Source of the DNA: Candidatus Curtissbacteria bacterium
GTDB taxonomy: Bacteria; Patescibacteriota; Microgenomatia; Curtissbacterales; GWA2-41-24
DNA length: 64,000 bases
Reading direction: 5' to 3'
NCBI GenBank assembly: GCA_030647775.1
Contig: JAUSJC010000010.1
Coordinates: forward strand, 433,334-497,333
The notes under the pieces were generated by a model. It searched no databases. It was given only the letters and a program-made list of their open reading frames with translations, and was not told the origin of the DNA. The position numbers and the translations under genes were made by a program. This document shows, one piece after another, positions 8,651-36,571 of this stretch (positions within the stretch are counted from its first letter, which is position 1; each line of letters opens with the position of its first letter).

Positions 8651-8691
8651 GCATTTTGGCCACTTTTGCAGACCAAAACGTTTTAATTAGT

Positions 8692-9804: not shown

Positions 9805-10900
9805 TCAGCGAGATTTAAAAATCGTCCTTTTCTGTGGAGGCTCCGGGACGCGCATGTGGCCGGCCAGCCGCAAAGAAAAACCCAAGCAATTCCAACCCCT
9901 GGTGGGCGATACTTCGATGTTCCAGCAGGCAATGGCCCGCATCAAAAAGGGTTTTCCCATAAGAGACGTTTTCGTTATCACCGGCAGGCAATATGTCGGC
10001 CTTGTTGTTCAGCAGGAACCGGATCTGCCCTTAGAAAACGTCATTATCGAACCGGAAATGAGGGATACCCTAGCCGCCGTCGGTTTTGCCGCCGCAGTCC
10101 TGGATAAAAAATTTGATAACCCTATCGTTGCTTCCCTTTGGGCAGCCGACCACTTGGTCAAAAATGATGACCAGTTTATTAAATCCTTAAAAGCCGCTTA
10201 TGAATATGTTAAAGATACCGGCAAAATGGTCTCAATTGACGTCAAACCGACATACCCCAATATCCATGTTGGCTACATCCAGATCGGTAAAATGATTAAA
10301 AAAGTTAACGGTCATGCTTTCTTTGAATACGTAAAACAAATCGAAAAACCGGATCTGGCAACCGCCAAAAAATACGCTGCCTCGTGGGAATACCTCTGGC
10401 ACGCCGGTTACAAAGTCTGGCATACCCAGAAAATGCTTTCTCAGTTTAAAAAATTTACACCCAAAGTTGCCAGCGGACTTGAGACTATCCAAAAATCATG
10501 GGGGAGCGATAACCAGGATGAAGTTGTCAGGCGTGTTTATCCGGATTTTGAAAAGCAATCAATCGATTATGCAATTTTTGAAAAGATGGATCCGGATGAC
10601 CTCGTCGTTTTACCGGCCGATATTGGTTGGTCTGATATCGGTGCCTGGAATATTCTAAAAGAAGAGCTTGCCCAAAACCAGACGGATAATGTTGTTTCCG
10701 GTGACGTTATTGATTTTGATTGTGAAGACTGTTTAATTTACAACAAAAGCGAAAATAAAATTGTGGCCACAATCGGTCTCAAGGGTTTAATCGTCGTCGA
10801 TACCCCGGATGGCCTCTTGGTCTGTGATAAAGATAAAATTTCCCAAGTCAAAAAAGTCATAGAGAAAATCAAAGAGACAAAGCAAGATAAATTTCTCTAA
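9788..10900 (+). CDS. manC: mannose-1-phosphate guanylyltransferase-like sugar nucleotidyltransferase
   Basis: KIVLFCGGSGTRMWPASRKEKPKQFQPL matches the ManC/GMPP N-terminal signature. Confidence 0.75.
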   Translation: MPAKNNQRDLKIVLFCGGSGTRMWPASRKEKPKQFQPLVGDTSMFQQAMARIKKGFPIRDVFVITGRQYVGLVVQQEPDLPLENVIIEPEMRDTLAAVGFAAAVLDKKFDNPIVASLWAADHLVKNDDQFIKSLKAAYEYVKDTGKMVSIDVKPTYPNIHVGYIQIGKMIKKVNGHAFFEYVKQIEKPDLATAKKYAASWEYLWHAGYKVWHTQKMLSQFKKFTPKVASGLETIQKSWGSDNQDEVVRRVYPDFEKQSIDYAIFEKMDPDDLVVLPADIGWSDIGAWNILKEELAQNQTDNVVSGDVIDFDCEDCLIYNKSENKIVATIGLKGLIVVDTPDGLLVCDKDKISQVKKVIEKIKETKQDKFL

Positions 10901-10909
10901 AACCCCAAA

Positions 10910-11560
10910 GTGCTATACGATTTATTAAAACGCACGATCGATATTATTGGCAGCCTCATAATTTTGGCCGTCTTTTCTCCTGTTATCTTAATTACTGCCG
11001 TTTTAATTAAGATTAGTTCCCCCGGGCCGGCCATTTATACCCCCCTGCGTGTCGGCAGGGACGGCAATCTTTTCAAGATGCTTAAGTTCCGCAGTATGTA
11101 CATGTATAAAATTAACGGCAAATTTGTGCATGCTAAAAAATACCTTGAGAAAAATCCCAAACTTATGCGCGAGTACCGGGAAAATAGTTTTAAGCTTGCT
11201 CACGACCCGCGGGTTACGCAGATTGGCAAATTCATTCGTAAGTTTTCCATCGATGAACTGCCGCAGCTTATTAATGTCGCCAAAGGCGATATGTCGCTTG
11301 TCGGCCCTCGGGCTTACCAGGAGGATGAGCTTACCCATCAGCAAAGGGTCTATCCGCATACCAAAAAATATGTAAAAGTTATTTTAGAAGCAAGGCCCGG
11401 CGCATCCGGCCCCTGGCAGGTTTCCGGCCGTTCTTTTATTAATTTTGATAAAAGGGTCATAATGGATGCTAAGTATGTCGAGAGGAGATCAATCTTATAT
11501 GATCTTTGGATCATGATGAAAACTCCAATTGCCATGATTACCGGCAGAGGAGCGGTATGA
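10910..11560 (+). CDS. polyprenyl-phosphate sugar phosphotransferase (bacterial sugar transferase, WbaP/EpsL-like)
   Basis: LKFRSM ... DELPQLINVAKGDMSLVGPR motif; N-terminal TM helix. Confidence 0.8.
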   Translation: MLYDLLKRTIDIIGSLIILAVFSPVILITAVLIKISSPGPAIYTPLRVGRDGNLFKMLKFRSMYMYKINGKFVHAKKYLEKNPKLMREYRENSFKLAHDPRVTQIGKFIRKFSIDELPQLINVAKGDMSLVGPRAYQEDELTHQQRVYPHTKKYVKVILEARPGASGPWQVSGRSFINFDKRVIMDAKYVERRSILYDLWIMMKTPIAMITGRGAV

Positions 11561-13371
11561 GAAAAAGAATCATCTTCATTTTAATAGCAATCGTTATCAT
11601 ATACGTCATCTTTGGCGTTCTTACGGCTCTTTCCATCAAAAAGGCAATTGGTACTATAAACAGTGCGTCCTCCGCTATCAAAGTCCAGGATTTGGATAAG
11701 GCAAAAGCAGATCTAAAGACCGCTAAAGGGGAGTTCCAAACCTCCCAGAAGATAATGGTAGTTTTTGCCCCAATTCGTGTTATTCCGCTTCTTGGCTGGT
11801 ATGTTGCCGATGCCCAGAGGGGCGTCGCGGCCGCCGTTTCCGGGCTTGATGCCGCCTCAACCGCGGCCGACGCAATTACTCCTTACGCTGATGTCCTTGG
11901 CTTAAAAGGTAAAGGTACTTTCTTAGGCGGTACTGCCCAAGAAAGGTTAGCAAAAGCAATCGAAGCACTTTCCAAAGTTGGCCCCCAGCTTGACGAGGTC
12001 GGTGCAAGTCTTGCTTCAACCAGGAAAGATGTCGACCAAATAGAGTCTTGGCGCTATCCAAATTTTTTGCCCGGCAGTCCGGGCGCCAAAATCGACAATA
12101 TTAAAAAAGCCGTCGACCAATTTGAATCACTAATCGTTGATTCGCGCCCCCTGCTTTTGGTTCTTCCCCAAATCATGGGTCAGGACAAAGAGCGAAAGTA
12201 TCTCGTCCTTTTCCAAAACGACAAAGAGCTTCGCCCCACCGGCGGGTTTATTACCGCTTACGCTGTTTTTCGGGTCAACAAGGGTGTTATTTCCTCAGAG
12301 GGATCCGATGATATTTACCGTCTGGACAGTACGCTCTTGAAAAAGGTCTCGGCACCCGCTCCAATGGTTAAGTATTTAAATGTTTCAAACCTTAACATGC
12401 GGGATTCCAATTTTTCACCTGATTACCTTGCCTCAATGAAAACCTTTGAAGACCTTTATCAGTCTTCATCCGGCAAAAAAGATATTGATGGCATCATCTC
12501 TTTAGATACCCAATTTGTTCTTTCGATGATGCAAGTTTTAGGCCCTGTCGATGCTTACGGCACCAAGTTTACCATTGATAAAGTTGATGCCTGCTCCTGT
12601 CCGCAGATAATTTATGAACTCGAAAGATACGCCGATCAAATCGTCGCTTATGAAAAAGGTTCCCGAAAAGATATTATCGGCGTTTTAATGCAAAGCCTGA
12701 TGGCCAAAGCTTTCAATGCGCCAAAAGGCCAGTGGCCAAGCCTCCTTGAGGCAATCGTCAATGACCTTCGCCAAAAACATTTGCTTCTCTATTTCCATGA
12801 TCCCCCAAGCCAGGCCGCCGCTGAAAAAATTAATTTCGCCGGCAGAATTTACAACTACGACGGTGATTATTTGCACATTAACGAAGCCAATCTTGGAGGC
12901 GCCAAATCCAACCTTTATGTTCAGGAGAAAGTGAGCCAGGTTGTTAAAAAGGCCAAAGACGGCAATTTGGATAAAACGGTTACGATTAGTTACAAATATC
13001 CGAAGGAAATGGATAATTGCAATTTGGAGCGTAAAACCGGCCTTTGTCTTGCCGGAATCTACCAGGATTATATAAGAATTTATGTTCCCAAGGGATCAAA
13101 GCTGATTAAATCCTCCGGAGCCGAAGTTGCCTTCACAGCCTCCGAAGACCTGGATAAAACGGTATTTGAAGCTTTCTTTACGGTCCGCCCTCAGGGCACG
13201 GCCAAAATCGAGCTCGAATACTCTGTTCCTATCAAAGTTACAAACCAGTACAAGCTCCTAATCCAAAAACAGCCGGGCACGGAAGGCATCATGTACGATA
13301 TCGATGCCCTCGGCCACCGCCAAAAAGCTTTCCCGCTCACAAACGACAAGGAATTGATCGTTAAGCTTTAA
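11557..13371 (+). CDS. DUF4012 domain membrane protein (cell-envelope polysaccharide associated)
   Basis: LVLFQNDKELRPTGGFITAYAVFRV is the DUF4012 hallmark; N-terminal TM; ATGA overlap with the previous gene. Confidence 0.7.
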   Translation: MRKRIIFILIAIVIIYVIFGVLTALSIKKAIGTINSASSAIKVQDLDKAKADLKTAKGEFQTSQKIMVVFAPIRVIPLLGWYVADAQRGVAAAVSGLDAASTAADAITPYADVLGLKGKGTFLGGTAQERLAKAIEALSKVGPQLDEVGASLASTRKDVDQIESWRYPNFLPGSPGAKIDNIKKAVDQFESLIVDSRPLLLVLPQIMGQDKERKYLVLFQNDKELRPTGGFITAYAVFRVNKGVISSEGSDDIYRLDSTLLKKVSAPAPMVKYLNVSNLNMRDSNFSPDYLASMKTFEDLYQSSSGKKDIDGIISLDTQFVLSMMQVLGPVDAYGTKFTIDKVDACSCPQIIYELERYADQIVAYEKGSRKDIIGVLMQSLMAKAFNAPKGQWPSLLEAIVNDLRQKHLLLYFHDPPSQAAAEKINFAGRIYNYDGDYLHINEANLGGAKSNLYVQEKVSQVVKKAKDGNLDKTVTISYKYPKEMDNCNLERKTGLCLAGIYQDYIRIYVPKGSKLIKSSGAEVAFTASEDLDKTVFEAFFTVRPQGTAKIELEYSVPIKVTNQYKLLIQKQPGTEGIMYDIDALGHRQKAFPLTNDKELIVKL

Positions 13372-13399
13372 AGTGGGAAAACCTCAACGTGAAGAGACA

Positions 13400-14215
13400 A
13401 TGAAATCCCCAAATCACGCTTGGCTTTTCGATGTCGATGGCGTCATAACTCACCCGGAGAAAAAGCAAGTTGTACGCAAGGGAATTTTTACCGAGATTAT
13501 CAAGCGTTTAAAATTAGGAGAACCCGTGGCGCTCGTCACTGGACGGGCGCTTTCTTGGGTCATGGAGCGCGTCGTTAATCCGCTTTCAAGCGAGATCGAT
13601 GACAAAACTGTTCTTGATAGACTTTTTGTATCAGGCGAGTTTGGCGCGTCGCGAATTCAATGGAAGAATGGAAAACCATTTCACGGTATAGATTCTTCAA
13701 TTTCTCTTCCAAAGAAACTTGCAGAAGAAGCACGCAAAGCTGCGGAAGCCTATAAAGATACTCAACACATCGACCCTGATAAAGAGACAATGGTCTCAAT
13801 TGAAATGAACGATGGGCTAACAGTTGATGAATTCAGACGTAATCAATTGCCTTTGGCAAAAAGACTGAATGAAATTCTCGCAAGCCAAAATGCAGAGCGA
13901 AAATTTGAAGTTCATGTTGACAGAATTGCGACCAACGTCAGGCATAAAGCTATAAATAAACACTATGCCGCACAACAAGTAATTCGCTGGCTTTCAAAAA
14001 TAGGGCTTTCGCCTAAGCAATTTTTTGCGTTTGGCGATAGCGCCGGAGACCGTGAAATGGCAGATGAGTTACACCGAGAAGGGAAAGCGGTAACATTTGT
14101 CTTTGTAGGACATAAAGAAGAGCTAGGTTCAAAAGGGAAAGGGTATAAAACAGTTATTACAGAAGAACAATGTGATGACGGAACAGTAGAATTTCTTAAA
14201 AGTAAAGAGAGCTAA
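13400..14215 (+). CDS. HAD-superfamily hydrolase
   Basis: motif I WLFDVDGVIT close to the N-terminus; FGDSAGD motif III/IV; an alternative GTG start at 13373. Confidence 0.7.
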   Translation: MKSPNHAWLFDVDGVITHPEKKQVVRKGIFTEIIKRLKLGEPVALVTGRALSWVMERVVNPLSSEIDDKTVLDRLFVSGEFGASRIQWKNGKPFHGIDSSISLPKKLAEEARKAAEAYKDTQHIDPDKETMVSIEMNDGLTVDEFRRNQLPLAKRLNEILASQNAERKFEVHVDRIATNVRHKAINKHYAAQQVIRWLSKIGLSPKQFFAFGDSAGDREMADELHREGKAVTFVFVGHKEELGSKGKGYKTVITEEQCDDGTVEFLKSKES

Positions 14216-14751
14216 GCCTTCTTATTACTGGTTGATTTAAGATATTCTTTAATGTCACTGCGAAAAAATTTAGCATACTTTTTCGGGGAAAAGGAAATCT
14301 TCCTTAAAAGAGTTTCCCATTCTACCCATTCGGGTTTTTCTTCCGACTCTCTATTAGTAAAGGATTCACCGTCAAGAATAATTTCAAAGAGATAAGCAAT
14401 TTCGTGGTTATTAGGCAAGTCATTATTAAAGAAAGACAAAAGTCTCTTAATCTTAATGCCGTCAGGCAATGATCGGCCGCCAAACAGCTCTTCTTGCAAT
14501 TCACGCATGATCGCCTCATCCGGCGTCTCATCGGAGAGGATGTGACCAGCAACCGAGGCTTCATACAAACTCGCTCCTTGTACGGCGTTTTTGCTTCTTT
14601 TTTGTACCAAAACCCTTGTCTTTTGTTCGTCACTAAAGACTAATGCATGAGCGCATTGATGGAGAAGCCCTTTTGTATGGCATTGCGTCCAAGTAGCGGT
14701 ACCGATTTTATTGCCCTTTTTATCTACAACGTCGTATATTTCGTCAGCCAT
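14212..14751 (-). CDS. NUDIX hydrolase
   Basis: Nudix box GHILSDETPDEAIMRELQEELFG. Confidence 0.8.
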   Translation of the reverse strand: MADEIYDVVDKKGNKIGTATWTQCHTKGLLHQCAHALVFSDEQKTRVLVQKRSKNAVQGASLYEASVAGHILSDETPDEAIMRELQEELFGGRSLPDGIKIKRLLSFFNNDLPNNHEIAYLFEIILDGESFTNRESEEKPEWVEWETLLRKISFSPKKYAKFFRSDIKEYLKSTSNKKA

Positions 14752-14764
14752 TTAAAAGTTAGTA

Positions 14765-15535
14765 TCAGGCAATGACCGTTAAAAGATCAGCAAAATTTTC
14801 TACAGTCGCATCAGGTTTATCGGCCGAAACTGAATAATCACGCCAGCGTTTTGTAGATCTGTATTTTTCCGGAGGAACGTATAATATAGCCTTTGCCCCA
14901 GCCTTATGTGCGCACTCGACATCACGGATAGGGTCATCACCGACATAGATAATATCTGAAATAGGCCGGCCAAACCTCTCGGACGCAACTTCGAAAACTC
15001 TCGGGTCCGGTTTTTCAATTCCAATTTCCTCACTTGTTAAAAAATGATCAAAAAGATCGGCTACACCAAGCCAAGCCAGCGTTGATTGTGGAGTAAAACT
15101 TCTATCGTTGGAAATTACAGCTAAATGTTTCCCGCGATCCCGCAACCCTCGTAAGGTTACTCTAAGTTCTTCTTTTCTTGGATTATTCTCGAGTAACTCT
15201 TTAAAACTCTTACGATACTCTGCAAGAATCAGCGGACCAAGAAGGAACCTGATTTCTGCCGGAACATTTGCTTCGTGAAGCCCTGCTTGTATAAATGGTT
15301 CTTCTTGTGAAAAATGAGAAGCAAACTGAAAGTTTAAATTACTGTTTGCTTGGCTCCAAGATTCTACAAATAAATTCTCATCTAACTGAAAACCAAAACT
15401 GCCCTTTGCTATCTCGACAGCTTTTTGGCCAACCTCATTCTTTAAATCATCAAATGGGTCCAAAACCAACGTATTACCCCAATCAAATACAATGCTATTC
15501 CCTTGCAACCTCTCAGATTCTGCCACTTCCACCAT
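14765..15535 (-). CDS. HAD-superfamily hydrolase
   Basis: IVFDWGNTLV motif I; YVGDDPIRDVECAHKAGAKAIL motif IV. Confidence 0.75.
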   Translation of the reverse strand: MVEVAESERLQGNSIVFDWGNTLVLDPFDDLKNEVGQKAVEIAKGSFGFQLDENLFVESWSQANSNLNFQFASHFSQEEPFIQAGLHEANVPAEIRFLLGPLILAEYRKSFKELLENNPRKEELRVTLRGLRDRGKHLAVISNDRSFTPQSTLAWLGVADLFDHFLTSEEIGIEKPDPRVFEVASERFGRPISDIIYVGDDPIRDVECAHKAGAKAILYVPPEKYRSTKRWRDYSVSADKPDATVENFADLLTVIA

Positions 15536-24376: not shown

Positions 24377-25570
24377 ATGTGGCAAAGAATTAAAAACTAT
24401 TACCACCTAGCCCAAGCTTTTTTAGCAGCAGTCATTTTTAATTTTCCCTCAAATAAAATTAAGGTAATCGGCGTTACGGGAACAGACGGCAAGACAACGA
24501 CCGTCCATATGATTTATGAAATTATAAAAGCATCGGGGCAAAAAGTATCCATGATTTCCTCGGTGGGAGCCGCCATTGGATCTAAAGCTTTCGATACAGG
24601 TTTCCATGTTACAACTCCATCAAGCTGGCAGGTTCAAAAATATCTAAGAAAAGCGGCCGACAGCGGACATAAGTATTTCGTCCTGGAAACCACTTCCCAC
24701 GGCCTTGATCAAAACCGCCTGGCCTATGTGCACTTCGAAATTGGAGTCCTGACCAATATCACTCACGACCACCTTGATTACCACGGTACTTGGGAGAACT
24801 ATGCCGCCTCCAAAGCAAAACTTTTCAAAAACGTTGCTTATTCAATTTTGAATTACGATGACCATAAATCATTCTCTTTTCTCCAAAATAAAGCAGCAGG
24901 TCAAGTTATTCCCTATGGAATCAAAAGTGGTGCCGATATCAATACAAAAAATTTTCCGCTTAAGCTCAAAATTAAAGGGGACTACAATTTAGAAAATGCC
25001 TTAGCATCGGCCGCCGCAACCAAAGCGCTAGGTGTTTCAAAGCAAAAAATCGTGAGAGCCCTCGCCAAGTTTTCAAAGGTTCCGGGTAGGATGGAAGAAA
25101 TAAACCTTGGTCAGGGCTTTAACGTTATTGTTGATTTTGCCCATACCCCAAATGCCCTGTCCCAAGCCCTCAGAACCCTAAAACCCAAAAGGCCGGGCCG
25201 TCTCATGGCCGTTTTTGGAGCAGCGGGAGAGAGGGATAAACTCAAAAGGCCGATTATGGGCAGAGTTGCCGATGAGAATGCCGATATCATTATCCTGACT
25301 GCCGAAGATCCAAGAAACGAAAAGGTTTTAGATATCGCCAGCCAGATTAAAAAGGGTATTAAAAATAAAACCGAAGGCAAAAGTCTTTTTGTAATTGAGG
25401 ACAGGGAAAAAGCTATCGGGTATGCCATAAATCTGGCTGCCAAAAATGATATTGTCGGAATTTTTGGCAAGGGTCACGAGAAGAGTATGTGTTTCGGCAA
25501 GAAGGAATCGCCTTGGGACGAATTCCATGTTACTGCAACCGCTATTAGAAGGAGGGTAAATGGCAAGTAA
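24377..25570 (+). CDS. murE: Mur ligase, MurE-like (UDP-MurNAc-L-Ala-D-Glu:diamino acid ligase), lacks the N-terminal domain
   Basis: VIGVTGTDGKTTT P-loop; DYHGTWENYAASKAKLF; the position after ftsI is the conserved murE slot. Confidence 0.75.
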   Translation: MWQRIKNYYHLAQAFLAAVIFNFPSNKIKVIGVTGTDGKTTTVHMIYEIIKASGQKVSMISSVGAAIGSKAFDTGFHVTTPSSWQVQKYLRKAADSGHKYFVLETTSHGLDQNRLAYVHFEIGVLTNITHDHLDYHGTWENYAASKAKLFKNVAYSILNYDDHKSFSFLQNKAAGQVIPYGIKSGADINTKNFPLKLKIKGDYNLENALASAAATKALGVSKQKIVRALAKFSKVPGRMEEINLGQGFNVIVDFAHTPNALSQALRTLKPKRPGRLMAVFGAAGERDKLKRPIMGRVADENADIIILTAEDPRNEKVLDIASQIKKGIKNKTEGKSLFVIEDREKAIGYAINLAAKNDIVGIFGKGHEKSMCFGKKESPWDEFHVTATAIRRRVNGK

Positions 25571-27554
25571 AAATAATTTCGCGGCAGTGGTGCTTGCGGC
25601 GGGTGTCGGCAAAAGGATGAAGTCCAAGACCTCAAAAGTTTTGCACGAAGTCGCCGGCAAACCAATAATTACACGCACCGTGGGGATCGTTGCATCCCTA
25701 AACCCCAGCCAAATAGTTATCGTTGCCAGTTCGCAAAATGCTAAAGACGTAAAAAGAATATTAAACGAAAAACCGGCCATCGCAATTCAAAAAGAGGCCC
25801 TAGGTACTGCTGATGCGACGAAGGCGGGATTGACAAAAATTAAAGAAGGCATAAAAGATATTGCGGTTCTCTATGGTGATGACACCGCCTTTTACAAGCC
25901 GCAGACTATCCTAAACGTCTTTGCGCTTCACCGAAAAACTTCTGCAAAAATTACTTTCGTCACTTTAGAAAAAGAAAATCCGTCTGGTCTTGGCAGAATC
26001 GTCAGAGAGAATGGTAAGCTTATCGGCATTGTCGAGGAAAAGGACGCGACAAAAAAAGAAAGGCAAATCAAAGAAATAAATGACGGTTTATATTTTTTCA
26101 GCAAAGACTGGCTTTTACAAAATCTTTCCAAACTTTTACCCTCTCCAGTAACAGGAGAATATTACTTGACCGATCTTATCAAAATTGCCCTTTCCCAAAA
26201 TCAAAAGGTCGAAACCTATAAATTAAAAGATCCCGGCCAGTGGCACGGAATAAATACCCCCGAAGAGTTGGAAGAAGCCAACAGCAAACTCAAAAACAAA
26301 ATCCATATTATGGGAATCGTCGGTGCCGGTGCAGCGGCCGTTGCCGGAATTGCCAAAGCATACGGTTTTAAAGTTTCTGGATGCGATATTTCGCCGCAGT
26401 CGGCTTACTCAAAAGGGTTAGGTATTAAGGTCCAAAAAGGCCATGACTCCGGCCATTTGAAAGCAGCCGACATGCTTATAATCTCTCCGGCCGTCTTAAA
26501 ACTAGATCCCAAAAACCGGGAGGTGGCAAAAGCAAAAAGTTTAAAAATCCCCGTTTCAACATGGCAGGAATTTCAGGGGGAATATTTACAAGAAGGTAAA
26601 TTTGTTATTGCCGTGGCGGGAGCTTATGGGAAATCAACGACAACCGCCATGGTTTCTCAAATATTAATCGATGCTGGTCTCGACCCGACATGTGAAGTTG
26701 GTGCAAAAGTCCTTTCATGGGATAAAAACTTTAGAGTCGGCAAGTCAAAATACTTCGTCTGCGAGGCGGACGAATACAATAATAACTTTTTAAATTACTC
26801 GCCGGATATTGCCGTCATCTTAAATATCGTCTGGGAGCATCCGGACTTTTTCAAGTCCGAAAAGGATATCACCGCATCGTATCAAAAATTTATTGATAAT
26901 ATCAAACCCGGCGGCACCCTAATCACAGGGTCCGACCCTCTGATACTTAAGCACAGAAAAAACGTCAAAACAGAGAAAATAGGGTCCGACCCTAACATTA
27001 CTAACATTAAACTTTCAATAATCGGTAATTTCCGAAAAGAAAACGCCGCCGCCGCGCTTTCCGTCGCCAAAGCGCTAAACCTTGATCTCCAAAAAGCCAA
27101 AAAATCGATAGAAAATTTCAAAGGCTTGGGGCGCCGTTTGGAGTTAAAAGGGGAGATAGACGGCGTCAAATTTTACGATGATTATGCCGTTCAGCCTTAT
27201 ACGGTCAAAACTACCGCGGACGCGTTAAAAGAAGAATTTAAAGATAAAAAAGTTTTGCTCGTTTTTGAACCACATACTTTTTCTCGCATCGAAACTTTTT
27301 TTGGCGATTTTGTCTCTGCGCTTAAAAAATCAAATGTCGATAAAATCTATATAACAGAAGTTTTTACGGCTAGGGAAAAAGGCAACAAAAAAACACTCGC
27401 TAAAAAACTGGCTAAAAAGGTAGGGAAAAAGGCAAAATTTACCGGATCGCTTGCCCAAACAGCGCAAGAAGTTAAAGATAATCTCGGGAAGTTTGAGATT
27501 GTCCTCTCGATGGGCGCCGGCGATATTTATAAGTTATACGATTTTTTTAAATAA
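25560..27554 (+). CDS. murC: fusion protein: N-terminal GlmU-like sugar-1-phosphate nucleotidyltransferase domain (no LbH acetyltransferase domain) plus C-terminal UDP-N-acetylmuramate--L-alanine ligase MurC
   Basis: N-terminus VVLAAGVGKRMKSKTSKVLHEVAGKPII ... LGTADA ... YGDD (GlmU pyrophosphorylase motifs); C-terminus IMGIVGAGAAAVAGIAKAYGFKVSGCDIS and VIAVAGAYGKSTTT (MurC). Confidence 0.75.
   Translation: MASKNNFAAVVLAAGVGKRMKSKTSKVLHEVAGKPIITRTVGIVASLNPSQIVIVASSQNAKDVKRILNEKPAIAIQKEALGTADATKAGLTKIKEGIKDIAVLYGDDTAFYKPQTILNVFALHRKTSAKITFVTLEKENPSGLGRIVRENGKLIGIVEEKDATKKERQIKEINDGLYFFSKDWLLQNLSKLLPSPVTGEYYLTDLIKIALSQNQKVETYKLKDPGQWHGINTPEELEEANSKLKNKIHIMGIVGAGAAAVAGIAKAYGFKVSGCDISPQSAYSKGLGIKVQKGHDSGHLKAADMLIISPAVLKLDPKNREVAKAKSLKIPVSTWQEFQGEYLQEGKFVIAVAGAYGKSTTTAMVSQILIDAGLDPTCEVGAKVLSWDKNFRVGKSKYFVCEADEYNNNFLNYSPDIAVILNIVWEHPDFFKSEKDITASYQKFIDNIKPGGTLITGSDPLILKHRKNVKTEKIGSDPNITNIKLSIIGNFRKENAAAALSVAKALNLDLQKAKKSIENFKGLGRRLELKGEIDGVKFYDDYAVQPYTVKTTADALKEEFKDKKVLLVFEPHTFSRIETFFGDFVSALKKSNVDKIYITEVFTAREKGNKKTLAKKLAKKVGKKAKFTGSLAQTAQEVKDNLGKFEIVLSMGAGDIYKLYDFFK
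26926..26994. repeat. two copies of the REP-like 15-mer 54 bp apart, in frame inside the MurC fusion gene (each encodes GSDP)
   Basis: cores at 26928-26938 and 26982-26992. Confidence 0.75.
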
Positions 27555-27555
27555 A

Positions 27556-28551
27556 ATGCCAAATTACGAAGAATTAAAAAATATTCTAGGGCCACTAAGG
27601 GTTTTTGAAAATGAACCACTGGCAAACCATACCTATTTTAAAATCGGCGGCCCGGCGCGGCTTTTTTTCGAGGCTAAAAGCTTGGATGATCTCAAGCTGG
27701 CCATAACAACAGCCAAAGAAAATAAAATCCCATTTGTTATTCTTGGCGGCGGCGCTAACGTACTTGTATCGGATAAAGGCTTTAACGGACTGGTTATTAA
27801 AAACAGGGCGGATGGTATAAAACTGGTTGGTTTAAAAGGGACAATCGACAAAACCGGGACCGGGATCAAAAACGCTCTTGTTTGGGCTTCATCTGGTACG
27901 CCGATGAATCAGCTTGCCCGCTTTACCATTGATCAAGGCTTGGAGGGGTTGGAATTTTTACTGTCTGTCCCCGGAACTATTGGCGGCGGGCTTAAAATTA
28001 ATGCCCATTTCGAAGTTGAGAAAGGCGATTTTATCGGCAGCCGGTTAGTTTCCGCGCTACTCTTTAACACAAAAACCAACCAAATAAAAAACGTAGACCA
28101 GACTTATTTCGAATTTTCTTACGACTATTCCAAAATCCAACAAACCGGTGAAATAGTTCTAGAAGCCGTTTTTCGGCTGGACAGAGCCCAAGATTCCCAA
28201 GGCCTTTGGCAAAGAGCGATGGATAATGTCAAAAGAAGAAATGACCAGCAGCCGGTCGGAATTGCCTGCTCCGGTTGTGTCTTCCGCAACATTTCACACG
28301 AGGATGCAGTTCATCTGGCCACTCCTAACCTGACAACATCAACCGGCTACATTATCGATAGCCTTGGCCTTAAAGGTACCAAAATTGGAGGCGCCGAAAT
28401 TTCTACCCACCACGCCAATTTTATCTTAAATACCGGAGGCGCCATGGCCCAAGATGTTATAGAATTGATTAACCTGATCAAGGCCAAAGCTAAAGAAACA
28501 TACGGTTTGGATTTAAAAGAAGAAATATTTTTGATCGGAGATTTTTTATGA
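27556..28551 (+). CDS. murB: UDP-N-acetylenolpyruvoylglucosamine reductase MurB
   Basis: FKIGGPARLFFEAKSLDDL ... FVILGGGANVLVSD FAD-binding signature. Confidence 0.9.
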   Translation: MPNYEELKNILGPLRVFENEPLANHTYFKIGGPARLFFEAKSLDDLKLAITTAKENKIPFVILGGGANVLVSDKGFNGLVIKNRADGIKLVGLKGTIDKTGTGIKNALVWASSGTPMNQLARFTIDQGLEGLEFLLSVPGTIGGGLKINAHFEVEKGDFIGSRLVSALLFNTKTNQIKNVDQTYFEFSYDYSKIQQTGEIVLEAVFRLDRAQDSQGLWQRAMDNVKRRNDQQPVGIACSGCVFRNISHEDAVHLATPNLTTSTGYIIDSLGLKGTKIGGAEISTHHANFILNTGGAMAQDVIELINLIKAKAKETYGLDLKEEIFLIGDFL

Positions 28552-29804
28552 TTACTTATGAGATAACTGGCGGCACAAAACTTTCAGGCAAAATCAAAGT
28601 TGCCGGTAATAAAAACTCAATTCTGCCCATTATGGCCGCTTGTCTTCTAACAGAAGACACTTGTACCATCAAAAACGTTCCCCAAATTTCCGATGTGGAT
28701 GTGATGAAAAAGCTGCTCGAGCTAACCGGAGCAAAAATTGAGTGGAAGGATAAATCAACGCTTGTTATAAGCGCCAAAGAAGTAAAACCAGTAGATTTTC
28801 CCCAAGAATTGACACAAAAGCTAAGAGCGGCTGTCCTCCTCATGGGGCCGATGTTGGCTAGATGCGGTGAAGTTAAAATGGGCCACCCGGGAGGAGATAT
28901 TATTGGCAGAAGACCTCTAGATACCCATATCCAATCACTTATTGCCCTCGGTGCCAAAATAAAAGAAGGCGATTTTTATGAAGGCTCGACCAAAGGCTTT
29001 AAGGGTACAGGTATCTTTTTAGAAGAGGCCTCTGTTACTGCTACCGAAAACGTCATTATGGCATCTGTTTTAGCAAGCGGTACAACCACGATCAGGAGAG
29101 CTGCTTCAGAGCCACACGTTATCGACCTATGCCAGTTTTTAAACAAAATGGGGGCACAAATCTCCGGTATCGGCTCAAACGTTCTAACAATTGTCGGCGT
29201 AAAACGTCTAAAAGGTACAACTTTCAAAGTCCGCCCCGATCATATTGAAGTTGGTACTTTTGCGATTTTGGCACTAGTTACCGCTACCAAGTTGGAAATA
29301 GCCCCTGTCATCAAAGAAGATGTCGAAATGATACTTCTTACTCTTTCAAAGTTCGGAGCCAAATATAAGCTGGGGAAAGAAACGCTTACTGTTTTCGGCA
29401 GTAAGCTTAAAGCCATAGAAAAAGTAGTAACTGGCGTCTGGCCGGGTTTTCCGACTGACCTAATTGCACCAATGATTGTTTTGGCAACCCAGGCCAAGGG
29501 CGTGACTATTATTCACGATTGGATGTACGAATCGCGGATGTTTTTTGTCGACAAACTTCTTTCGATGGGTGCTAAAGTTGAAATTGCTGATCCTCACAGA
29601 GTGCTTGTGTACGGCCCAACGAAGCTTTTCGGCCAAAGGCTGGACACTCCCGATATTAGGGCCGGTATCGCCATTGTTATCGCCGCACTTTCTGCAACAG
29701 GTAAGAGCCAAATCGATAAAGCCGAGCTTATCGAGAGAGGTTATGAAAATATAGTGGAAAGACTTTTAGCTCTCGGTGCCCAAATAACCCGTAGGCAGTC
29801 ATAA
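28548..29804 (+). CDS. murA: UDP-N-acetylglucosamine 1-carboxyvinyltransferase MurA
   Basis: ITGGTKLSGKIKVAGNKNSILPIMAACLL EPSP-synthase-fold signature. Confidence 0.9.
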   Translation: MITYEITGGTKLSGKIKVAGNKNSILPIMAACLLTEDTCTIKNVPQISDVDVMKKLLELTGAKIEWKDKSTLVISAKEVKPVDFPQELTQKLRAAVLLMGPMLARCGEVKMGHPGGDIIGRRPLDTHIQSLIALGAKIKEGDFYEGSTKGFKGTGIFLEEASVTATENVIMASVLASGTTTIRRAASEPHVIDLCQFLNKMGAQISGIGSNVLTIVGVKRLKGTTFKVRPDHIEVGTFAILALVTATKLEIAPVIKEDVEMILLTLSKFGAKYKLGKETLTVFGSKLKAIEKVVTGVWPGFPTDLIAPMIVLATQAKGVTIIHDWMYESRMFFVDKLLSMGAKVEIADPHRVLVYGPTKLFGQRLDTPDIRAGIAIVIAALSATGKSQIDKAELIERGYENIVERLLALGAQITRRQS

Positions 29805-30776: not shown

Positions 30777-31985
30777 TTGATGATGTTTAATACCGATATT
30801 TTTGAAGAGGTCAGATCATGGAAAAAACCTCTCCATAAATCAAGGAATTATATTGCCAAAAATTACCTCAAACTTCTTCCGGAAGTCGAGGTAATCGGTA
30901 TTACCGGTAGCGTTGGTAAAACCCTAACCCAAAACGCAATTTATTCGGTACTTTCCCAAAAATTTAACGTCGCCACCGGCGGCGAAAATCTTGATCCTAC
31001 ATTTCGTATTCCCCAAACGATTCTTGCAACCAAGCCGTGGAATCAAAAAGTAGTCCTCGAATATGGAGTCGAAAAACCCGGCAATATGGATCATTACCTT
31101 TCTATCGTCAAACCTAAAATTGCGGTTGTTACGACTATCTCCCCGACCCACACAAAATATTTTAAAGATATCGAGGGTATCTATAGTGAAAAGGTTAAGT
31201 TGGTAAAGGCTCTTGGTAAAAGCGGCTATGCAGTCTTAAACGCCGATGATCCAAACGTCACGAAAATGGCAAATGAAACCGAAGCCAGAATTTATTGGTA
31301 CGGTAAAAAGGCAGCCGACGGCGTAAAAATATCGCATTTTTCGCAAAGTCTTACCGGGTCAACCTTTCGTTTGCACTACAAAAGCCAAAAAGCTACTGTC
31401 AGCTGGAAGGCAGTGGGCGAACATCAATTAACTTCGGCATATGCCGCTGCAGCCGTCGGTCTTTTGGAGGGTTTGACTTTAAAACAAATCGCCAAGGGGC
31501 TTTCCCAAGTGAAATTGCCCGTGCACCGTCTGACTCCGCTTGTTACCAAAAACTTCAATATTATCGACGATACTTATAATTCTTCTCCAAAAGCGGCTCT
31601 TGAAGCCTTGAAAACGTTCCTCAAATTATCGAAAAATTTGCATAAAATAATTGTCCTCGGTCCGATGAAGGACTTGGGTCATTTATCCCTCGAAGAACAC
31701 AAAAAACTTGGGTCAGCCATTGCCAAATCTAAAATTAATGTTCTTATCACATACGAAAAGGTTGCCGAAATTATCGGCAAATCAGCCAAAAAATACGGCT
31801 TTGTCGGTAGAGTTCTAAATTCCGATTCAACGCAAGAAATTATAAAAGAAATTAAAAAACTCAAAAAGGCAAACAGCGTAATTCTAATTAAGGGCTCCCG
31901 CCATGCCCACCTGGAAAGAGTCGTTAATGGGCTTTTAGGAAAATCGACAAAGCTAAACTGTTACCACTGTGGTAATCTTAAATAA
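30777..31985 (+). CDS. murF: UDP-MurNAc-tripeptide--D-alanyl-D-alanine ligase MurF
   Basis: VIGITGSVGKTLT P-loop; position before mraY. Confidence 0.85.
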   Translation: MMMFNTDIFEEVRSWKKPLHKSRNYIAKNYLKLLPEVEVIGITGSVGKTLTQNAIYSVLSQKFNVATGGENLDPTFRIPQTILATKPWNQKVVLEYGVEKPGNMDHYLSIVKPKIAVVTTISPTHTKYFKDIEGIYSEKVKLVKALGKSGYAVLNADDPNVTKMANETEARIYWYGKKAADGVKISHFSQSLTGSTFRLHYKSQKATVSWKAVGEHQLTSAYAAAAVGLLEGLTLKQIAKGLSQVKLPVHRLTPLVTKNFNIIDDTYNSSPKAALEALKTFLKLSKNLHKIIVLGPMKDLGHLSLEEHKKLGSAIAKSKINVLITYEKVAEIIGKSAKKYGFVGRVLNSDSTQEIIKEIKKLKKANSVILIKGSRHAHLERVVNGLLGKSTKLNCYHCGNLK

Positions 31986-33074: not shown

Positions 33075-33857
33075 ATGCAAGATAAACGACCAATAGGACT
33101 TTTTGATTCCGGTGTTGGCGGCCTCTCCGTTCTTTTGGAAATTGCCAAAATCCTCCCCAACGAAAACTTCATTTTTCTGGCTGATCAGCTAAACGTTCCC
33201 TATGGCGGCAAAACTAAAAGGGAACTGGAAGACCTAACTGAACGAATCACTTACTTCTTAATGAAGAAAAAAATAAAAGCTCTGGTGGTTGCCTGTAACA
33301 CGGCAACTTGTTACGCCTTGGATTATTTAAGGTTCAATTTCGATATTCCCATAGTCGGCGTCGTTCCGGCCGTTAAGCCCTCCGCCAAACTTACCAAAAC
33401 CGGGAAAATTGCCATTATGTCCACACCAGCCACAGCCAAAAGCGCCTATTTGGCTTCTCTAATAGTAGAATTCGGTAAGCATAAAAATTTCCTTAAACTA
33501 GGATGCGATGGTTTAGAAGATGCTGTCGAGACCTTAGATACAAATGCACTTGAGAAGCTTTTAGATAAATATTGCGCACAGATTAAAAAATTTGGTGCGG
33601 ATGTTGTGATCTTAGGTTGTACCCACTTCCCATTTCTAAAAGAAGATATTAAAAAAAGGCTTGGCCCCAATGTGAAAGTTATTGATTCAGGCCAAGCAAT
33701 TGCTAGGCGTGTTAAGTATCTTCTCAAGAGGAAAGACATTCTTTCTTCATCAAAAGATAGCGACCTTTTTTTTACTACGGGTGACGAGAAAGAATTTTCG
33801 CGCGTTGCTTCCCAACTTTTAGAATCTATTATCAAGTCCCAAAAAGCAGAGATCTAA
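33075..33857 (+). CDS. murI: glutamate racemase MurI
   Basis: IGLFDSGVGGLSVL and VVACNTAT motifs. Confidence 0.9.
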   Translation: MQDKRPIGLFDSGVGGLSVLLEIAKILPNENFIFLADQLNVPYGGKTKRELEDLTERITYFLMKKKIKALVVACNTATCYALDYLRFNFDIPIVGVVPAVKPSAKLTKTGKIAIMSTPATAKSAYLASLIVEFGKHKNFLKLGCDGLEDAVETLDTNALEKLLDKYCAQIKKFGADVVILGCTHFPFLKEDIKKRLGPNVKVIDSGQAIARRVKYLLKRKDILSSSKDSDLFFTTGDEKEFSRVASQLLESIIKSQKAEI

Positions 33858-33858
33858 A

Positions 33859-35208
33859 ATGAATAGAAACAGCGGCGTGAAGATTCTAAGAGAAAAATAT
33901 CCAGTATTTGAATACTCAAGTTTTTCTTATAAGAAAAAGGCTAAATCACTTGTTATCTCTTTTCTTTTTAAGATCCGTCCGGATATTGTATTTGAACCCG
34001 TTTTAGAAATTAAAAATGTTGATAATTTTGAAAATATAGAAAACTTTATTTTCCATTTAGGGTTAATTGAAATGTTGAGCTATTGGAAAGTCACCTGCTC
34101 TCCACTCATAAAAATAAAAGCTGGGTCATTAAACCAAAAACAAATAAATTGGTGGAAAAACTTACTTATAAAAGGTCTTGGAGAATTCTTCTATCAAAAT
34201 GATATCGACTTTAAAGAAGAAGATTTTGTGAGAATTGAAAGTGCTGGCAAAAAACTTTTTCAATATGACAAAGTCGGCCATAAAGATCGTTATTTAATTC
34301 TAAATGGAGGGGGAAGGGATTCTGTTGTCTCATTAGAATTTTTAAAAGAGCTTAAAAAACAAACAAAAATTTTAATGCTCAACCCTACCCAAGCCCAATT
34401 AGCTGTAACCAGAGTTTCTGGCGTAGATAATCCGATCATTGTTAAAAGAGAAATTGATAAAAGATTACTAGATCTAAACCAGAAAGGATATTTAAATGGC
34501 CATACTCCATTCTCGGCATATTTATCTTTCCTTTCTATTCTATGTTCTAAACTTTTTGACTATAAATACATTATTTCTTCAAATGAAAGAAGCTCTAACG
34601 AAGGAAACCTTGAATTTAAAGGCGAGAAGATTAATCACCAATATTCCAAAAGCTTCGAATTCGAGAAATCTTTTAGACAATATGCAAAAGAGAATCTATC
34701 AGATGACATAGAATATTTAAGTTTATTAAGGCCGCTTTACGAAATTCAAATTTCCAGGATATTTTCGAATTACAAACAATATTTCGGTGCATTTAAAAGC
34801 TGCAATAGGGGGCAAAAAACCAACAGCTGGTGTGGGAAATGCCCAAAGTGTCTTTCAATTTTTATTTCCTTATATCCATTCGTAGGTGAAGGTCAGGCAG
34901 AAATAATCTTCGGGAAAAACTTATATAAAGACACAGATCTCGTTGGTCTTCTCGGAGAAATCAGCGGTGAGGGCGAGAACAAACCTTTTGAGTGCGTAGG
35001 AACTTTTGAAGAAATTTTAACAGGTCTTTATCTAAGCTCAAAAAAGGCCGGAGAACAATTAAAAGAACTTCCTCTTTTGGAATTTGCGGTTTCTGAAATT
35101 TTACCTAAATATAATATGGAAGAAATTCAAGAAAGAATCATTAATGGTTGGGACGACGAAAATTTTCTGCCGGGAAAAATTGTTACTACACTCAAAAATA
35201 ATGTTTGA
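33859..35208 (+). CDS. uncharacterised protein with a PP-loop-like motif and a C-terminal Cys cluster, embedded between murI and murD
   Basis: LILNGGGRDSVV resembles the SGGxDS adenine-nucleotide alpha-hydrolase PP-loop; CNRGQKTNSWCGKCPKC Cys cluster; about 140-aa N-terminal region without a recognisable motif. Confidence 0.5.
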   Translation: MNRNSGVKILREKYPVFEYSSFSYKKKAKSLVISFLFKIRPDIVFEPVLEIKNVDNFENIENFIFHLGLIEMLSYWKVTCSPLIKIKAGSLNQKQINWWKNLLIKGLGEFFYQNDIDFKEEDFVRIESAGKKLFQYDKVGHKDRYLILNGGGRDSVVSLEFLKELKKQTKILMLNPTQAQLAVTRVSGVDNPIIVKREIDKRLLDLNQKGYLNGHTPFSAYLSFLSILCSKLFDYKYIISSNERSSNEGNLEFKGEKINHQYSKSFEFEKSFRQYAKENLSDDIEYLSLLRPLYEIQISRIFSNYKQYFGAFKSCNRGQKTNSWCGKCPKCLSIFISLYPFVGEGQAEIIFGKNLYKDTDLVGLLGEISGEGENKPFECVGTFEEILTGLYLSSKKAGEQLKELPLLEFAVSEILPKYNMEEIQERIINGWDDENFLPGKIVTTLKNNV

Positions 35209-36571
35209 AGAATTCAAAGATAAAAATATTTTGATTCTGGGAGCAGGTCGGGAAGGGTTTTCTGCTTTAAAGTTGCTAAGAAAGATTTTCCCACGGAAAA
35301 GATTAACTATCTGCGATGAGAAAAATTTAGAGAAACTTGATAAAGAAATTCAGGAAATCGTCAGGGGTGATAAAAATTTAGAAGCAAATTTTGGCAAACA
35401 CTATTTAGATTTTCCTGGAAATATCGATCTTATAATTAAATCTCCTGGTATCCCGCGAAAAAAATTGGGAAAAATATCTGCGCAGATAACATCAGCAACG
35501 AAAATATTCTTCAAATACTGCAAAGGGACCATAATTGGTATCACCGGAACTAAAGGCAAAAGCACTACATCGTCACTTGTTTATAAGATTCTCAAAGACA
35601 ATGGTTTTAATGTTGAACTGGTAGGTAATATTGGTAAACCGGCAATTATATATCTTGACGCAAAAACAGAAGACAAAATTTTTATTTATGAACTATCAAG
35701 TTTCCAGCTTGAAGATCTACGTCAAAGCCCGCATATTGGGGTTATTTTGAATATCTATGAGGAACATCTGGATTATCACGAAAGCTTCGAAGATTATAAA
35801 AAAAGTAAAGTAAATATTACCCGGTGGCAAAAACCTAATGATTTTTTAATTTATAATTTTAATGCAGACTTAAAAGCGGTAATTATTTCCCAGACAAAGG
35901 CACAAAAAATCCCCTTTAGTATTTCAGAAGCAATAAATGACGGCTATTCTATTGAAAACGACTGGATAGTTAACGCAACGGACGGAAAGAAAGAAAAAAT
36001 AATGTCGCTTGATAATATAAATCTTATCGGAAAATTTAATTTGAATAATGTAATTGCTTCTATTGCAGTTACTAAAATTTTTGGGATCGAGAACAGAAAA
36101 ATAGAAAAATCCGTTAAATCATTTAAACCGCTGGAGCATCGTCTTCAGCTTGTAGGCACTTTCAGAGGCATTACATTTTATAATGATTCTATAGCCACAA
36201 ATCCGGGGGCAACGATAGCAGCAATGGATGCTCTTGGGGATAATTTGCAAACGATAATCCTTGGCGGATACGAACGGGGATTAAATTTCGATAATCTGGC
36301 AACGGAGTTAATCAACAGCAAGGTTGAAAACACTATTCTCTTTCCCGTAACCGGCAAGAGAATAAAGGAAGCAATACTTACACAAAAGCCGGACTGCAAG
36401 ATTCATTTCTATGATGCTAGTAATATGTCAGAAGCCGTGGCACTTGCTTGCTCAAATACGCAAGAGGGCAAAATTTGTTTACTCTCCCCAGCTTCGCCGA
36501 GTTTTAACATGTTCAAAAATTACGAGGACCGCGGCAGGCAGTTTGCCGCCGAAGTTAATAAACTAACGTGA
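35201..36571 (+). CDS. murD: UDP-N-acetylmuramoylalanine--D-glutamate ligase MurD
   Basis: ILILGAGREGFSALKLL; IGITGTKGKSTT P-loop; start set at MFEEFK (overlaps the stop of the previous gene). Confidence 0.85.
   Translation: MFEEFKDKNILILGAGREGFSALKLLRKIFPRKRLTICDEKNLEKLDKEIQEIVRGDKNLEANFGKHYLDFPGNIDLIIKSPGIPRKKLGKISAQITSATKIFFKYCKGTIIGITGTKGKSTTSSLVYKILKDNGFNVELVGNIGKPAIIYLDAKTEDKIFIYELSSFQLEDLRQSPHIGVILNIYEEHLDYHESFEDYKKSKVNITRWQKPNDFLIYNFNADLKAVIISQTKAQKIPFSISEAINDGYSIENDWIVNATDGKKEKIMSLDNINLIGKFNLNNVIASIAVTKIFGIENRKIEKSVKSFKPLEHRLQLVGTFRGITFYNDSIATNPGATIAAMDALGDNLQTIILGGYERGLNFDNLATELINSKVENTILFPVTGKRIKEAILTQKPDCKIHFYDASNMSEAVALACSNTQEGKICLLSPASPSFNMFKNYEDRGRQFAAEVNKLT

Follow-up and report, generated by a model that had tools for sequence, protein, structure and literature searches.

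A GlmU-type nucleotidyltransferase fused to MurC in the cell wall gene cluster of Candidatus Curtissbacteria

Why should a nucleotidyltransferase (NTase) and the Mur ligase MurC be encoded as one protein? The question is raised by the division and cell wall (dcw) cluster in a 64,000-nucleotide stretch of DNA from a Candidatus Curtissbacteria bacterium (contig JAUSJC010000010.1; the whole stretch is called the window below), which contains, between murE and murB, a single open reading frame (ORF) of 664 residues in which an NTase domain precedes MurC, the UDP-N-acetylmuramate (UDP-MurNAc):L-alanine ligase. The original prediction, made from the sequence alone, was that the first about 240 residues are of GlmU type but devoid of the left-handed beta-helix (LbH) acetyltransferase domain, that the rest is a complete MurC, and that the NTase could make either UDP-N-acetylglucosamine (UDP-GlcNAc) or, like MurU, UDP-MurNAc directly. 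The comparison of sequences, predicted structure and gene orders makes it quite probable that the protein is one polypeptide with two autonomous peptidoglycan-precursor enzymes, derived from a split glmU and from murC.

The fused protein and its two halves

The Pfam domains of the protein are NTP_transferase (residues 9-246) and, from the very next residue on, the three Mur ligase domains (247-343, 352-468 and 525-654), and no Pfam match to a hexapeptide or LbH domain was obtained in the 664 residues. The GlmU profiles (TIGR01173/NF0109xx) matched with 200-209 bits (E 1e-59 to 1e-61), only through profile positions 1-241, those beyond about 250 being unmatched; RmlA-type models gave about 64 bits. 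Both the GlmU-type N-terminus without LbH and the complete MurC of the original prediction were thus borne out, and the motifs it had named are present (LAAGVGKRM, residues 12-20; LGTADA, 81-86; YGDD, 105-108). The N-terminal 246 residues correspond to the complete uridylyltransferase domain of the bifunctional GlmU and to the first part of its helical arm; unlike GlmU, the protein has MurC in place of the LbH acetyltransferase and trimerisation domain. Lacking the LbH domain and scoring 200.4 bits, far below the GlmU equivalog cutoff (366.85), the fusion is not a GlmU in the family sense.

Searching the N-terminal 245 residues against PDB sequences returned 17 distinct GlmU proteins over the full uridylyltransferase domain (E 1e-27 to 1e-38, 97-136 bits; 30-35% identity to solved GlmUs), the next family being the archaeal ST0452 type at 1e-6. 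Foldseek superposed the predicted fold on the GlmU structures 4g87 (root-mean-square deviation, rmsd, 2.3 Å over 261 columns) and 4aaw (3.1 Å over 257 columns, 35% identity). Residues were mapped by alignment onto the numbering of Streptococcus pneumoniae GlmU (given in brackets), and their conservation was counted over 68 fusions, which are overall only 55-74% identical. R19 (R15), K26 (K22), G82-T83, D108 (D102) and E159 (E154) are present in 68 of 68, and G145 is likewise invariant; Q77 (Q72) is kept in 67 and N174 (N169) in 65, while N232 (N227) is Asn in 64 and Asp in 4. By analogy with GlmU structures, the Arg and Lys are presumably catalytic, D102 and N227 are taken to bind Mg, and N169 to bind GlcNAc. 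The pyrophosphorylase fingerprint L-x2-G-x-G-T-x-M-x4-P-K (PMC10087520) is represented by L12, G15, G17, R19, M20 and K26.

The C-terminal 419 residues were matched in two stretches by the MurC equivalog model TIGR01082 with 331.1 bits (cutoff 335.1), which is clearly the best score among the paralogues (Mpl 173, MurD 89 and MurE 41-52 bits), MurF being far lower too. The best PDB match was the MurC 9ir5 (E 2.5e-61), in comparison with which the stretch linking the central to the C-terminal domain is about 28 residues shorter, and the model superposed on Haemophilus influenzae MurC 1p31 with a TM score of 0.83 and an rmsd of 2.6 Å. The P-loop GxxGKST (G354-T361, with K358), E402 and H427 are kept in 68 of 68 fusions. 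Like other MurC proteins, this half retains the three-domain Mur ligase architecture, the P-loop, the Mg-binding Glu and the His, and by architecture, residues and predicted fold it is a MurC; unlike them, it carries the 246-residue NTase at its N-terminus, the shortening between the central and C-terminal domains and an altered motif, DDYAVQP, which is weighed below. Judged by sequence, both halves look catalytically competent.

The NTase half likely makes UDP-GlcNAc, acting as a GlcNAc-1-P uridylyltransferase. This assignment follows from the profile scores, the matches to solved structures, the conserved substrate-binding residues and the position of murB and murA directly downstream of the fusion, all of which favour the first of the two products proposed in the original prediction.

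An AlphaFold2 (AF2) model built on 68 family members had a mean predicted local distance difference test (pLDDT) value of 92.4 and a predicted TM score (pTM) of 0.78. At the junction a helix (residues 234-244) runs directly into a strand (247-251), with block-mean pLDDT values of 86-94 and no disordered linker, and the spacing between N232 and H249 is 16 residues in 52 of the 68 fusions. The simplest reading of the model is that about 12 residues of the GlmU inter-domain helix have been retained as the connector.

The fusion was found throughout the lineage. The nucleotides around the junction (26280-26315) are in-frame coding sequence without a stop, and the identical 664-residue protein, again between murE and murB, is encoded on an 8.4-kb contig of an independent Logan assembly (run SRR13727527). 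A protein search over 5.8 billion clustered proteins gave 1264 matches at E<=1e-10, of which the best 120 clusters (clustered at 90% identity; 55-100% identical to the protein), drawn from NCBI, JGI, ENA and Logan sources, were inspected as the survey of relatives proposed with the original prediction. The architecture of NTase and Mur ligase, with 648-696 residues, occurs in 119 of them, the sole exception being a 534-residue partial sequence, and nearly all named members belong to Candidatus Curtissbacteria (Patescibacteria group, Microgenomates). For Candidatus Curtissbacteria the fused form is the rule, and no fewer than two other lineages have it as well. The original prediction was correct in placing it inside the dcw cluster, and this type is missing from the catalogue of Mur chimeras in PMC10214165; the description of it as unusual does not hold for a lineage in which it is standard.

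A separate MurC translated from an internal start at the invariant Met251 was considered as well; no Shine-Dalgarno-like motif lies upstream, and the Met belongs to a clade-wide HxMGI motif found also in unfused MurCs, so that the proposal is unsupported.

Unfused relatives and the probable course of the fusion

The arrangement from which the fusion may have arisen is seen in unfused relatives. Two contigs (L091 and L092) have the gene order murE, NTase, LbH, a Cu-oxidase_4/YfiH-family gene and murC, L091 continuing with murB and murA and L092 ending just past murC. The NTase (252 and 248 residues) and the LbH protein (198 and 191 residues) are encoded as overlapping ORFs, and the identities with the window are 52% for MurE, 43-46% for the NTase, 42-64% for MurC and 59% for MurA. 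On a third contig (L001), which contains the murE 3' end, the NTase and the LbH ORF, the NTase stop and the LbH start overlap as ATGA; this overlap lies upstream of an A-run, and a homopolymer error therefore cannot account for the split. The window shows the gene order of L091 and L092 except that the LbH and yfiH-family genes are absent and that NTase and murC form one gene.

In the simplest reading of these gene orders, an ancestral glmU, located between murE and murC, would have been split into two translationally coupled, overlapping ORFs, one for the NTase and one for the LbH acetyltransferase. A segment of about 1.4 kb, comprising the LbH and yfiH-family genes, would then have left the cluster in the Curtissbacteria lineage, and the NTase ORF would have been joined in frame to murC, the acetyltransferase half surviving as a separate gene for about 200 residues elsewhere in the genome.

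A HMMER search of 1.84 billion cluster representatives, followed by domain scans, showed that fusions of the GlmU-type NTase with MurC fall into three 50%-identity clusters, namely the Curtissbacteria group, P0122 and P0124 (Candidatus Daviesbacteria). In three others (P0162, P0156 and P0190) this NTase is attached to the C-terminal end of a MurE, and in P0207 and P0261 it stands alone. In neighbour-joining trees all Curtissbacteria fusions form one clade for both halves, whereas P0122 and P0124 fall among unfused relatives, a placement which suggests, as far as these rough trees allow, independent fusions and hence that a GlmU-type NTase was joined to MurC more than once.

The Daviesbacteria fusion (L004 10001-15629, GCA_016186985.1) is followed by murD, an alpha/beta hydrolase gene and another Mur ligase gene, with oppositely oriented glycosyltransferase genes upstream. 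In the protein the connector is longer and the HHP motif is the canonical one; these features, with the gene context, are consistent with an independent fusion event.

Among the MurE fusions, P0162 (L002 8001-10043) is a full-length MurE with a C-terminal GlmU-type NTase and a separate murC next to it, the order on this contig being mraZ, rsmH, ftsL, the gene for a penicillin-binding protein (PBP), murA, the fused murE-NTase gene and murC. The murE gene of the window (stop codon 25568-25570) overlaps the NTase-murC gene by 11 nt in a different frame, so that a small indel could yield a triple fusion of MurE, NTase and MurC.

Another Curtissbacteria contig (GCA_016196855.1) encodes between murE and murB a protein of 880 residues (P0121; L003 7141-9783) that starts with an archaeal-GlmU/RmlA-like NTase (144-146 bits, compared with 78 for bacterial GlmU) and continues with a HAD-IA hydrolase domain and MurC. 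Its MurC is 61% identical to that of the window and nests inside the Curtissbacteria fusion clade, and the protein looks like the product of a replacement of the NTase module. The metagenome scan found no relatives of P0121, so that the order NTase-HAD-MurC is known from one contig. Other chimeras close to this MurC (P0126, P0154, P0168 and P0175) are a MurC-MurB of 699 residues, a MurD-MurC of 841 residues and two Mur-ligase-MurC proteins of 930-958 residues. They are mostly without a taxonomic name and would accordingly have been left out of the published survey of Mur chimeras.

As to how the fused protein would work, MurA and MurB turn UDP-GlcNAc into UDP-MurNAc, to which the C-terminal MurC would add the first amino acid of the stem peptide. 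Because the MurA and MurB steps lie between the two activities of the fusion, direct channelling from one half to the other is not expected. A passage of PMC10087520, citing Pompeo 2001, states that the domains of E. coli GlmU are autonomously active and that only the acetyltransferase requires the trimer; by analogy, the NTase without LbH should be active. The fusion may fix a 1:1 stoichiometry through equimolar co-production, contribute to stability or ease the assembly of a complex of Mur enzymes, and chimeras of non-sequential Mur enzymes (MurG-MurC, MurC-Ddl) have been read as aids to stoichiometry or complex formation (PMC10214165). The data would agree just as well with a purely neutral outcome of genome compaction. 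The protein probably works as the simple sum of two well-understood enzymes.

The acetyltransferase half and alternative readings

The LbH protein of L001, used as the probe, led to a large protein family whose members stand alone, have about 200 residues and match positions of about 245-440 of the GlmU profile. One of these, P0278, scored 237 bits on TIGR01173 (positions 248-440), other LbH families giving at most 97 bits; among the best 120 matches listed, about 65 clusters reach 66% identity with it or more, those with a name being assigned to Curtissbacteria or 'Patescibacteria group'. The stand-alone LbH gene of Curtissbacteria lies outside the dcw cluster. One metagenome-assembled genome (MAG), GCA_040900145.1, carries both the fusion (P0009, JBBDZN010000054.1, in the order murE, fusion, murB, murA) and the LbH protein (P0444, JBBDZN010000080.1), which argues, subject to the binning of the MAG, that GlmU is split rather than half-lost in this lineage. 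The possibility of a separate glmU, raised with the original prediction, is answered in part: a full glmU was not found, and its acetyltransferase half exists as a gene of its own in Curtissbacteria.

The stand-alone LbH gene is followed by ATP-grasp_2/Citrate_bind, CoA-ligase and citrate-synthase-like genes (L005-L010, for example L006 5666-9911; L094 502-1956). By their domains these look like an ATP-citrate lyase or a citryl-CoA synthetase/lyase, a possible source of acetyl-CoA for the acetyltransferase. A search for synteny between the 64-kb window and this neighbourhood gave no matches. In a scan of a genome collection with an LbH profile, the 600 rows listed were all from Chloroflexota and carry no information on Curtissbacteria; 70 of the 80 loci had an NTase match directly upstream and are apparently ordinary full-length glmU genes.

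Several observations weigh against the reading of the protein as two autonomous enzymes derived from a split glmU and murC. In the NTase half, the Thr and Pro of the fingerprint are replaced by Lys and Ser, both positions being variable within the family. The MurC half lies 4 bits under the NCBIfam equivalog cutoff, and in 67-68 of the 68 fusions DDYAVQP (residues 540-546, positions 27177-27197) takes the place of the canonical DDYxHHP, which we take to be part of the MurC substrate pocket; unfused relatives carry DD[YF]AHHP. The motif change together with the score below the cutoff means that the amino-acid specificity of the MurC half could differ. The order of the evolutionary events is drawn from a small number of short contigs and from neighbour-joining trees whose branches carry no support values. 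Moreover, the co-occurrence of fusion and LbH protein depends on MAG binning; the LbH gene is not in the 64-kb window, where the best tblastn match to the LbH of a relative had an E of 1.4; and none of the best 120 LbH matches lies on a contig of the size of the large fusion-bearing ones (526,960, 583,648, 975,962 and 1,018,205 bp).

The observations on the large contigs bear on the explanation which survives best among the alternatives, namely that the source genome has no acetyltransferase and that the NTase serves GlcNAc salvage (GlcNAc → GlcNAc-6-P → GlcNAc-1-P) in an auxotroph like Capnocytophaga canimorsus. Genomes of the candidate phyla radiation (CPR) are metabolically reduced, and no LbH, GlmS, GlmM or GlcNAc-kinase gene was found within the 64-kb window. 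In Bacteroidetes, monofunctional uridyltransferases are tied to GlcNAc auxotrophy (PMC4358021). GlmU_Cc, of C. canimorsus and many Bacteroidetes, is like the NTase of the window a GlmU-related uridyltransferase without an acetyltransferase domain. Unlike the window domain it stands alone, in organisms that are without the acetyltransferase and are GlcNAc auxotrophs (PMC4358021), whereas the window domain is fused to MurC and the acetyltransferase gene is kept in at least some genomes of the lineage. Against salvage stand the abundance of the stand-alone LbH family in Curtissbacteria and its presence beside the fusion in GCA_040900145.1; in addition, the window represents 12% of its source contig, and a more divergent LbH would be missed among the best 120 matches. 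We consider the salvage explanation unlikely, although it deserves to be kept in mind.

It is tempting to speculate that the linkage was selected in Microgenomates, UDP-GlcNAc synthesis being docked on a cytoplasmic Mur complex with the LbH-less NTase using MurC or MurE as a scaffold. This idea draws on the NTase fused to MurE in three clusters, on the repeated fusion of NTase and MurC in the rough trees and on the exchange in P0121 for a non-orthologous NTase with a HAD domain. It appears rather improbable; if true, the fusion would be a Rosetta-stone sign of an interaction between GlmU and Mur ligases in bacteria at large.

The second product suggested in the original prediction would require an NTase of the MurU kind, which would form UDP-MurNAc straight from MurNAc-alpha-1-P in a salvage route and pass it to the fused MurC. 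Such a fusion would have the attraction of joining steps that follow each other, CPR bacteria are believed to obtain compounds from hosts by scavenging, and the different NTase of P0121 matches the MurU model weakly (58 bits, cutoff 250). The window domain shares with MurU the broad nucleotidyltransferase fold and the N-terminal glycine-rich loop, to which the match of the solved MurU structures (4y7t, E 0.94; 8hhd, E 1.7; about 12 bits) is confined, in contrast to the specific likeness to GlmU over the whole domain; past the loop there is no significant sequence match, and the MurU model (NF045761) is missing from the best 25 NCBIfam families listed for the domain. The residues aligned with what we take to be the GlcNAc and Mg ligands of GlmU are kept in 64-68 of the 68 fusions, and the scanned parts of the window showed neither a gene for a MurNAc kinase nor an AmgK-like one. 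With murA and murB directly behind the fusion, the genes for the de novo formation of UDP-MurNAc are in place, as would suit an NTase that forms UDP-GlcNAc, and a MurU-type shortcut is not needed. A MurU-like function is therefore very improbable.

No more credit can be given to the view that the NTase is a catalytically inert remnant, serving as a structural or regulatory appendage of MurC. The two substitutions in the fingerprint and the loss of the natural trimeric partner domain would agree with it, but the substituted positions vary in the family and are neither the catalytic Arg nor the Lys, Arg19, Lys26, Gly82-Thr83, Asp108 and Glu159 are invariant with Gln77, Asn174 and Asn232 nearly so, and no other candidate for a UDP-GlcNAc pyrophosphorylase was seen in the cluster; we hold an inert domain to be barely credible. 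Finally, the frameshift or chimeric join of two genes that the original prediction had named as a possible artefact, for which the origin of the window from a MAG and short A-runs close to the junction could be cited, can be practically dismissed in view of the stop-free junction, the identical protein in the independent assembly, the shared architecture of 119 of the 120 clusters from four source databases, the fixed position of the junction, the conserved size of the connector and the confident AF2 model across it.

Gene neighbourhood and relation to known Mur chimeras

The order of genes in this complete precursor cluster is rsmH, ftsL-like, the PBP gene, murE, the fusion, murB, murA, ddl, murF, mraY, murI, murL-like, murD, ftsW, murG, ftsA and ftsZ, and the coordinates of the features discussed are collected in Table 1. 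Promoter-like and terminator-like sites occurred at chance frequency, the sole intergenic promoter-like sites preceding murE and murF.

Table 1. Features of the fused gene and of neighbouring genes, in positions of the window
Feature	Position	Strand	Basis and remarks
NTase-MurC fusion ORF	25560..27554	+	ATG start, 664 aa
Shine-Dalgarno AGGAGG	25549..25554	+	Read from sequence; within murE 3' end, 5 nt before fusion ATG
Predicted GlmU-type GlcNAc-1-P uridylyltransferase (UDP-GlcNAc pyrophosphorylase) domain, aa 1-246	25560..26297	+	Pfam, GlmU profiles, structures
Putative residual GlmU inter-domain helical arm, aa 234-244, linking to MurC	26259..26291	+	AF2 model, spacing conservation
MurC (UDP-MurNAc:L-Ala ligase), complete/compact, aa 247-664 + stop	26298..27554	+	Pfam, TIGR01082, PDB, Foldseek
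MurC N domain	26298-26588	+	Pfam Mur_ligase
MurC central ATPase domain	26613-26963	+	Pfam Mur_ligase_M
MurC C domain	27132-27521	+	Pfam Mur_ligase_C
murE, 397 aa, without N-terminal domain	24377..25570	+	TIGR01085 407 bits, profile positions 69-471
murB	27557..28551	+	Pfam FAD_binding_4, MurB_C; ATG 2 nt past fusion stop
murA	28548..29804	+	Pfam EPSP_synthase 243 bits; 4-nt overlap with murB
murF, 402 aa, without N-terminal (UDP-binding) domain	30777-31985		Profile matched from position 64

The N-terminal UDP-binding domain of MurE is gone, residues 1-81 of the MurE of a full-length relative being unmatched anywhere in the window, and the gaps upstream of the short murE and murF are too small to hide a domain; a short MurE is also encoded on another Curtissbacteria contig (L003). 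The region 33075-36571 encodes the glutamate racemase MurI (217 bits, above the cutoff), a MurL-like protein of 449 residues (248 bits, cutoff 700) and then MurD. MurL is the UDP-MurNAc-L-Ala-L-Glu epimerase of the alternative MurD2/MurL route, and since MurI and MurL side by side would be redundant routes to D-Glu, the MurL-like protein may do something else. A second gene of the FtsW/RodA/SpoVE family (53533-54576, 308 bits) lies 15 kb downstream of the ftsW of the mur cluster, and upstream of the latter a polysaccharide-type cluster (8530-15535) contains glycosyltransferase, sugar-transferase, Man-1-P guanylyltransferase and HAD genes.

A second motif of the MurC half, EPHTFSR[IV] (residues 571-577, positions 27270-27290), was found across the Curtissbacteria fusion clade, where unfused relatives and most MurCs have QPHxxSRT. 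The change of both motifs, DDYAVQP and EPHTFSR, coincides with the absence from the cluster of the YfiH/PgeF-family gene, which in L091 and L092 lies directly upstream of murC. YfiH/PgeF edits the UDP-MurNAc-Ser/Gly produced in error by MurC (PMC8844914, PMC12280929), and an altered specificity or fidelity of the fused MurC for the first residue is conceivable.

The catalogued natural Mur chimeras are MurE-MurF, MurC-Ddl, MurC-MurB, MurG-MurC, MurD-FtsW and MraY-MurG (PMC10214165, PMC4803751). Like these, the fusion joins neighbouring dcw/mur genes, the NTase of unfused relatives being encoded in the same cluster upstream of murC with the LbH and yfiH-family genes between them, and both of its parts would seem to be functional; the steps it links do not follow each other, which is also the case in MurG-MurC and MurC-Ddl. 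Unlike in the catalogued chimeras, the partner here is a nucleotide-sugar pyrophosphorylase, half of a GlmU, which would act upstream of the Mur pathway proper. The type is not among the six of PMC10214165, in the text of which GlmU and nucleotidyl occur 0 times and whose survey excluded sequences from unidentified species. Full-text literature searches turned up neither a GlmU-MurC fusion nor any account of GlmU in Patescibacteria or Curtissbacteria. What is added here is the proposed evolutionary path in the outline given above, the relocated acetyltransferase gene and the sister chimera of MurE and NTase.

The public names of the fusions are 'sugar phosphate nucleotidyltransferase', 'NTP transferase domain-containing protein' and 'UDP-N-acetylmuramate--alanine ligase', never those of a bifunctional protein, and metabolic reconstructions could consequently score such genomes as being without GlmU, MurC or both. 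No new chemistry or mechanism is implied by the fusion. It adds one type, or two with the MurE-NTase chimera, to the natural Mur chimeras, which are used as evidence that the cytoplasmic cell-wall steps take place in an enzyme complex, and broadens the set to include UDP-GlcNAc synthesis, which lies upstream. Bifunctionality of GlmU is not universal, one CPR lineage having its halves encoded apart and one of them fused to MurC, and this split GlmU may be regarded as a natural counterpart to the domain-dissection experiments on E. coli GlmU.

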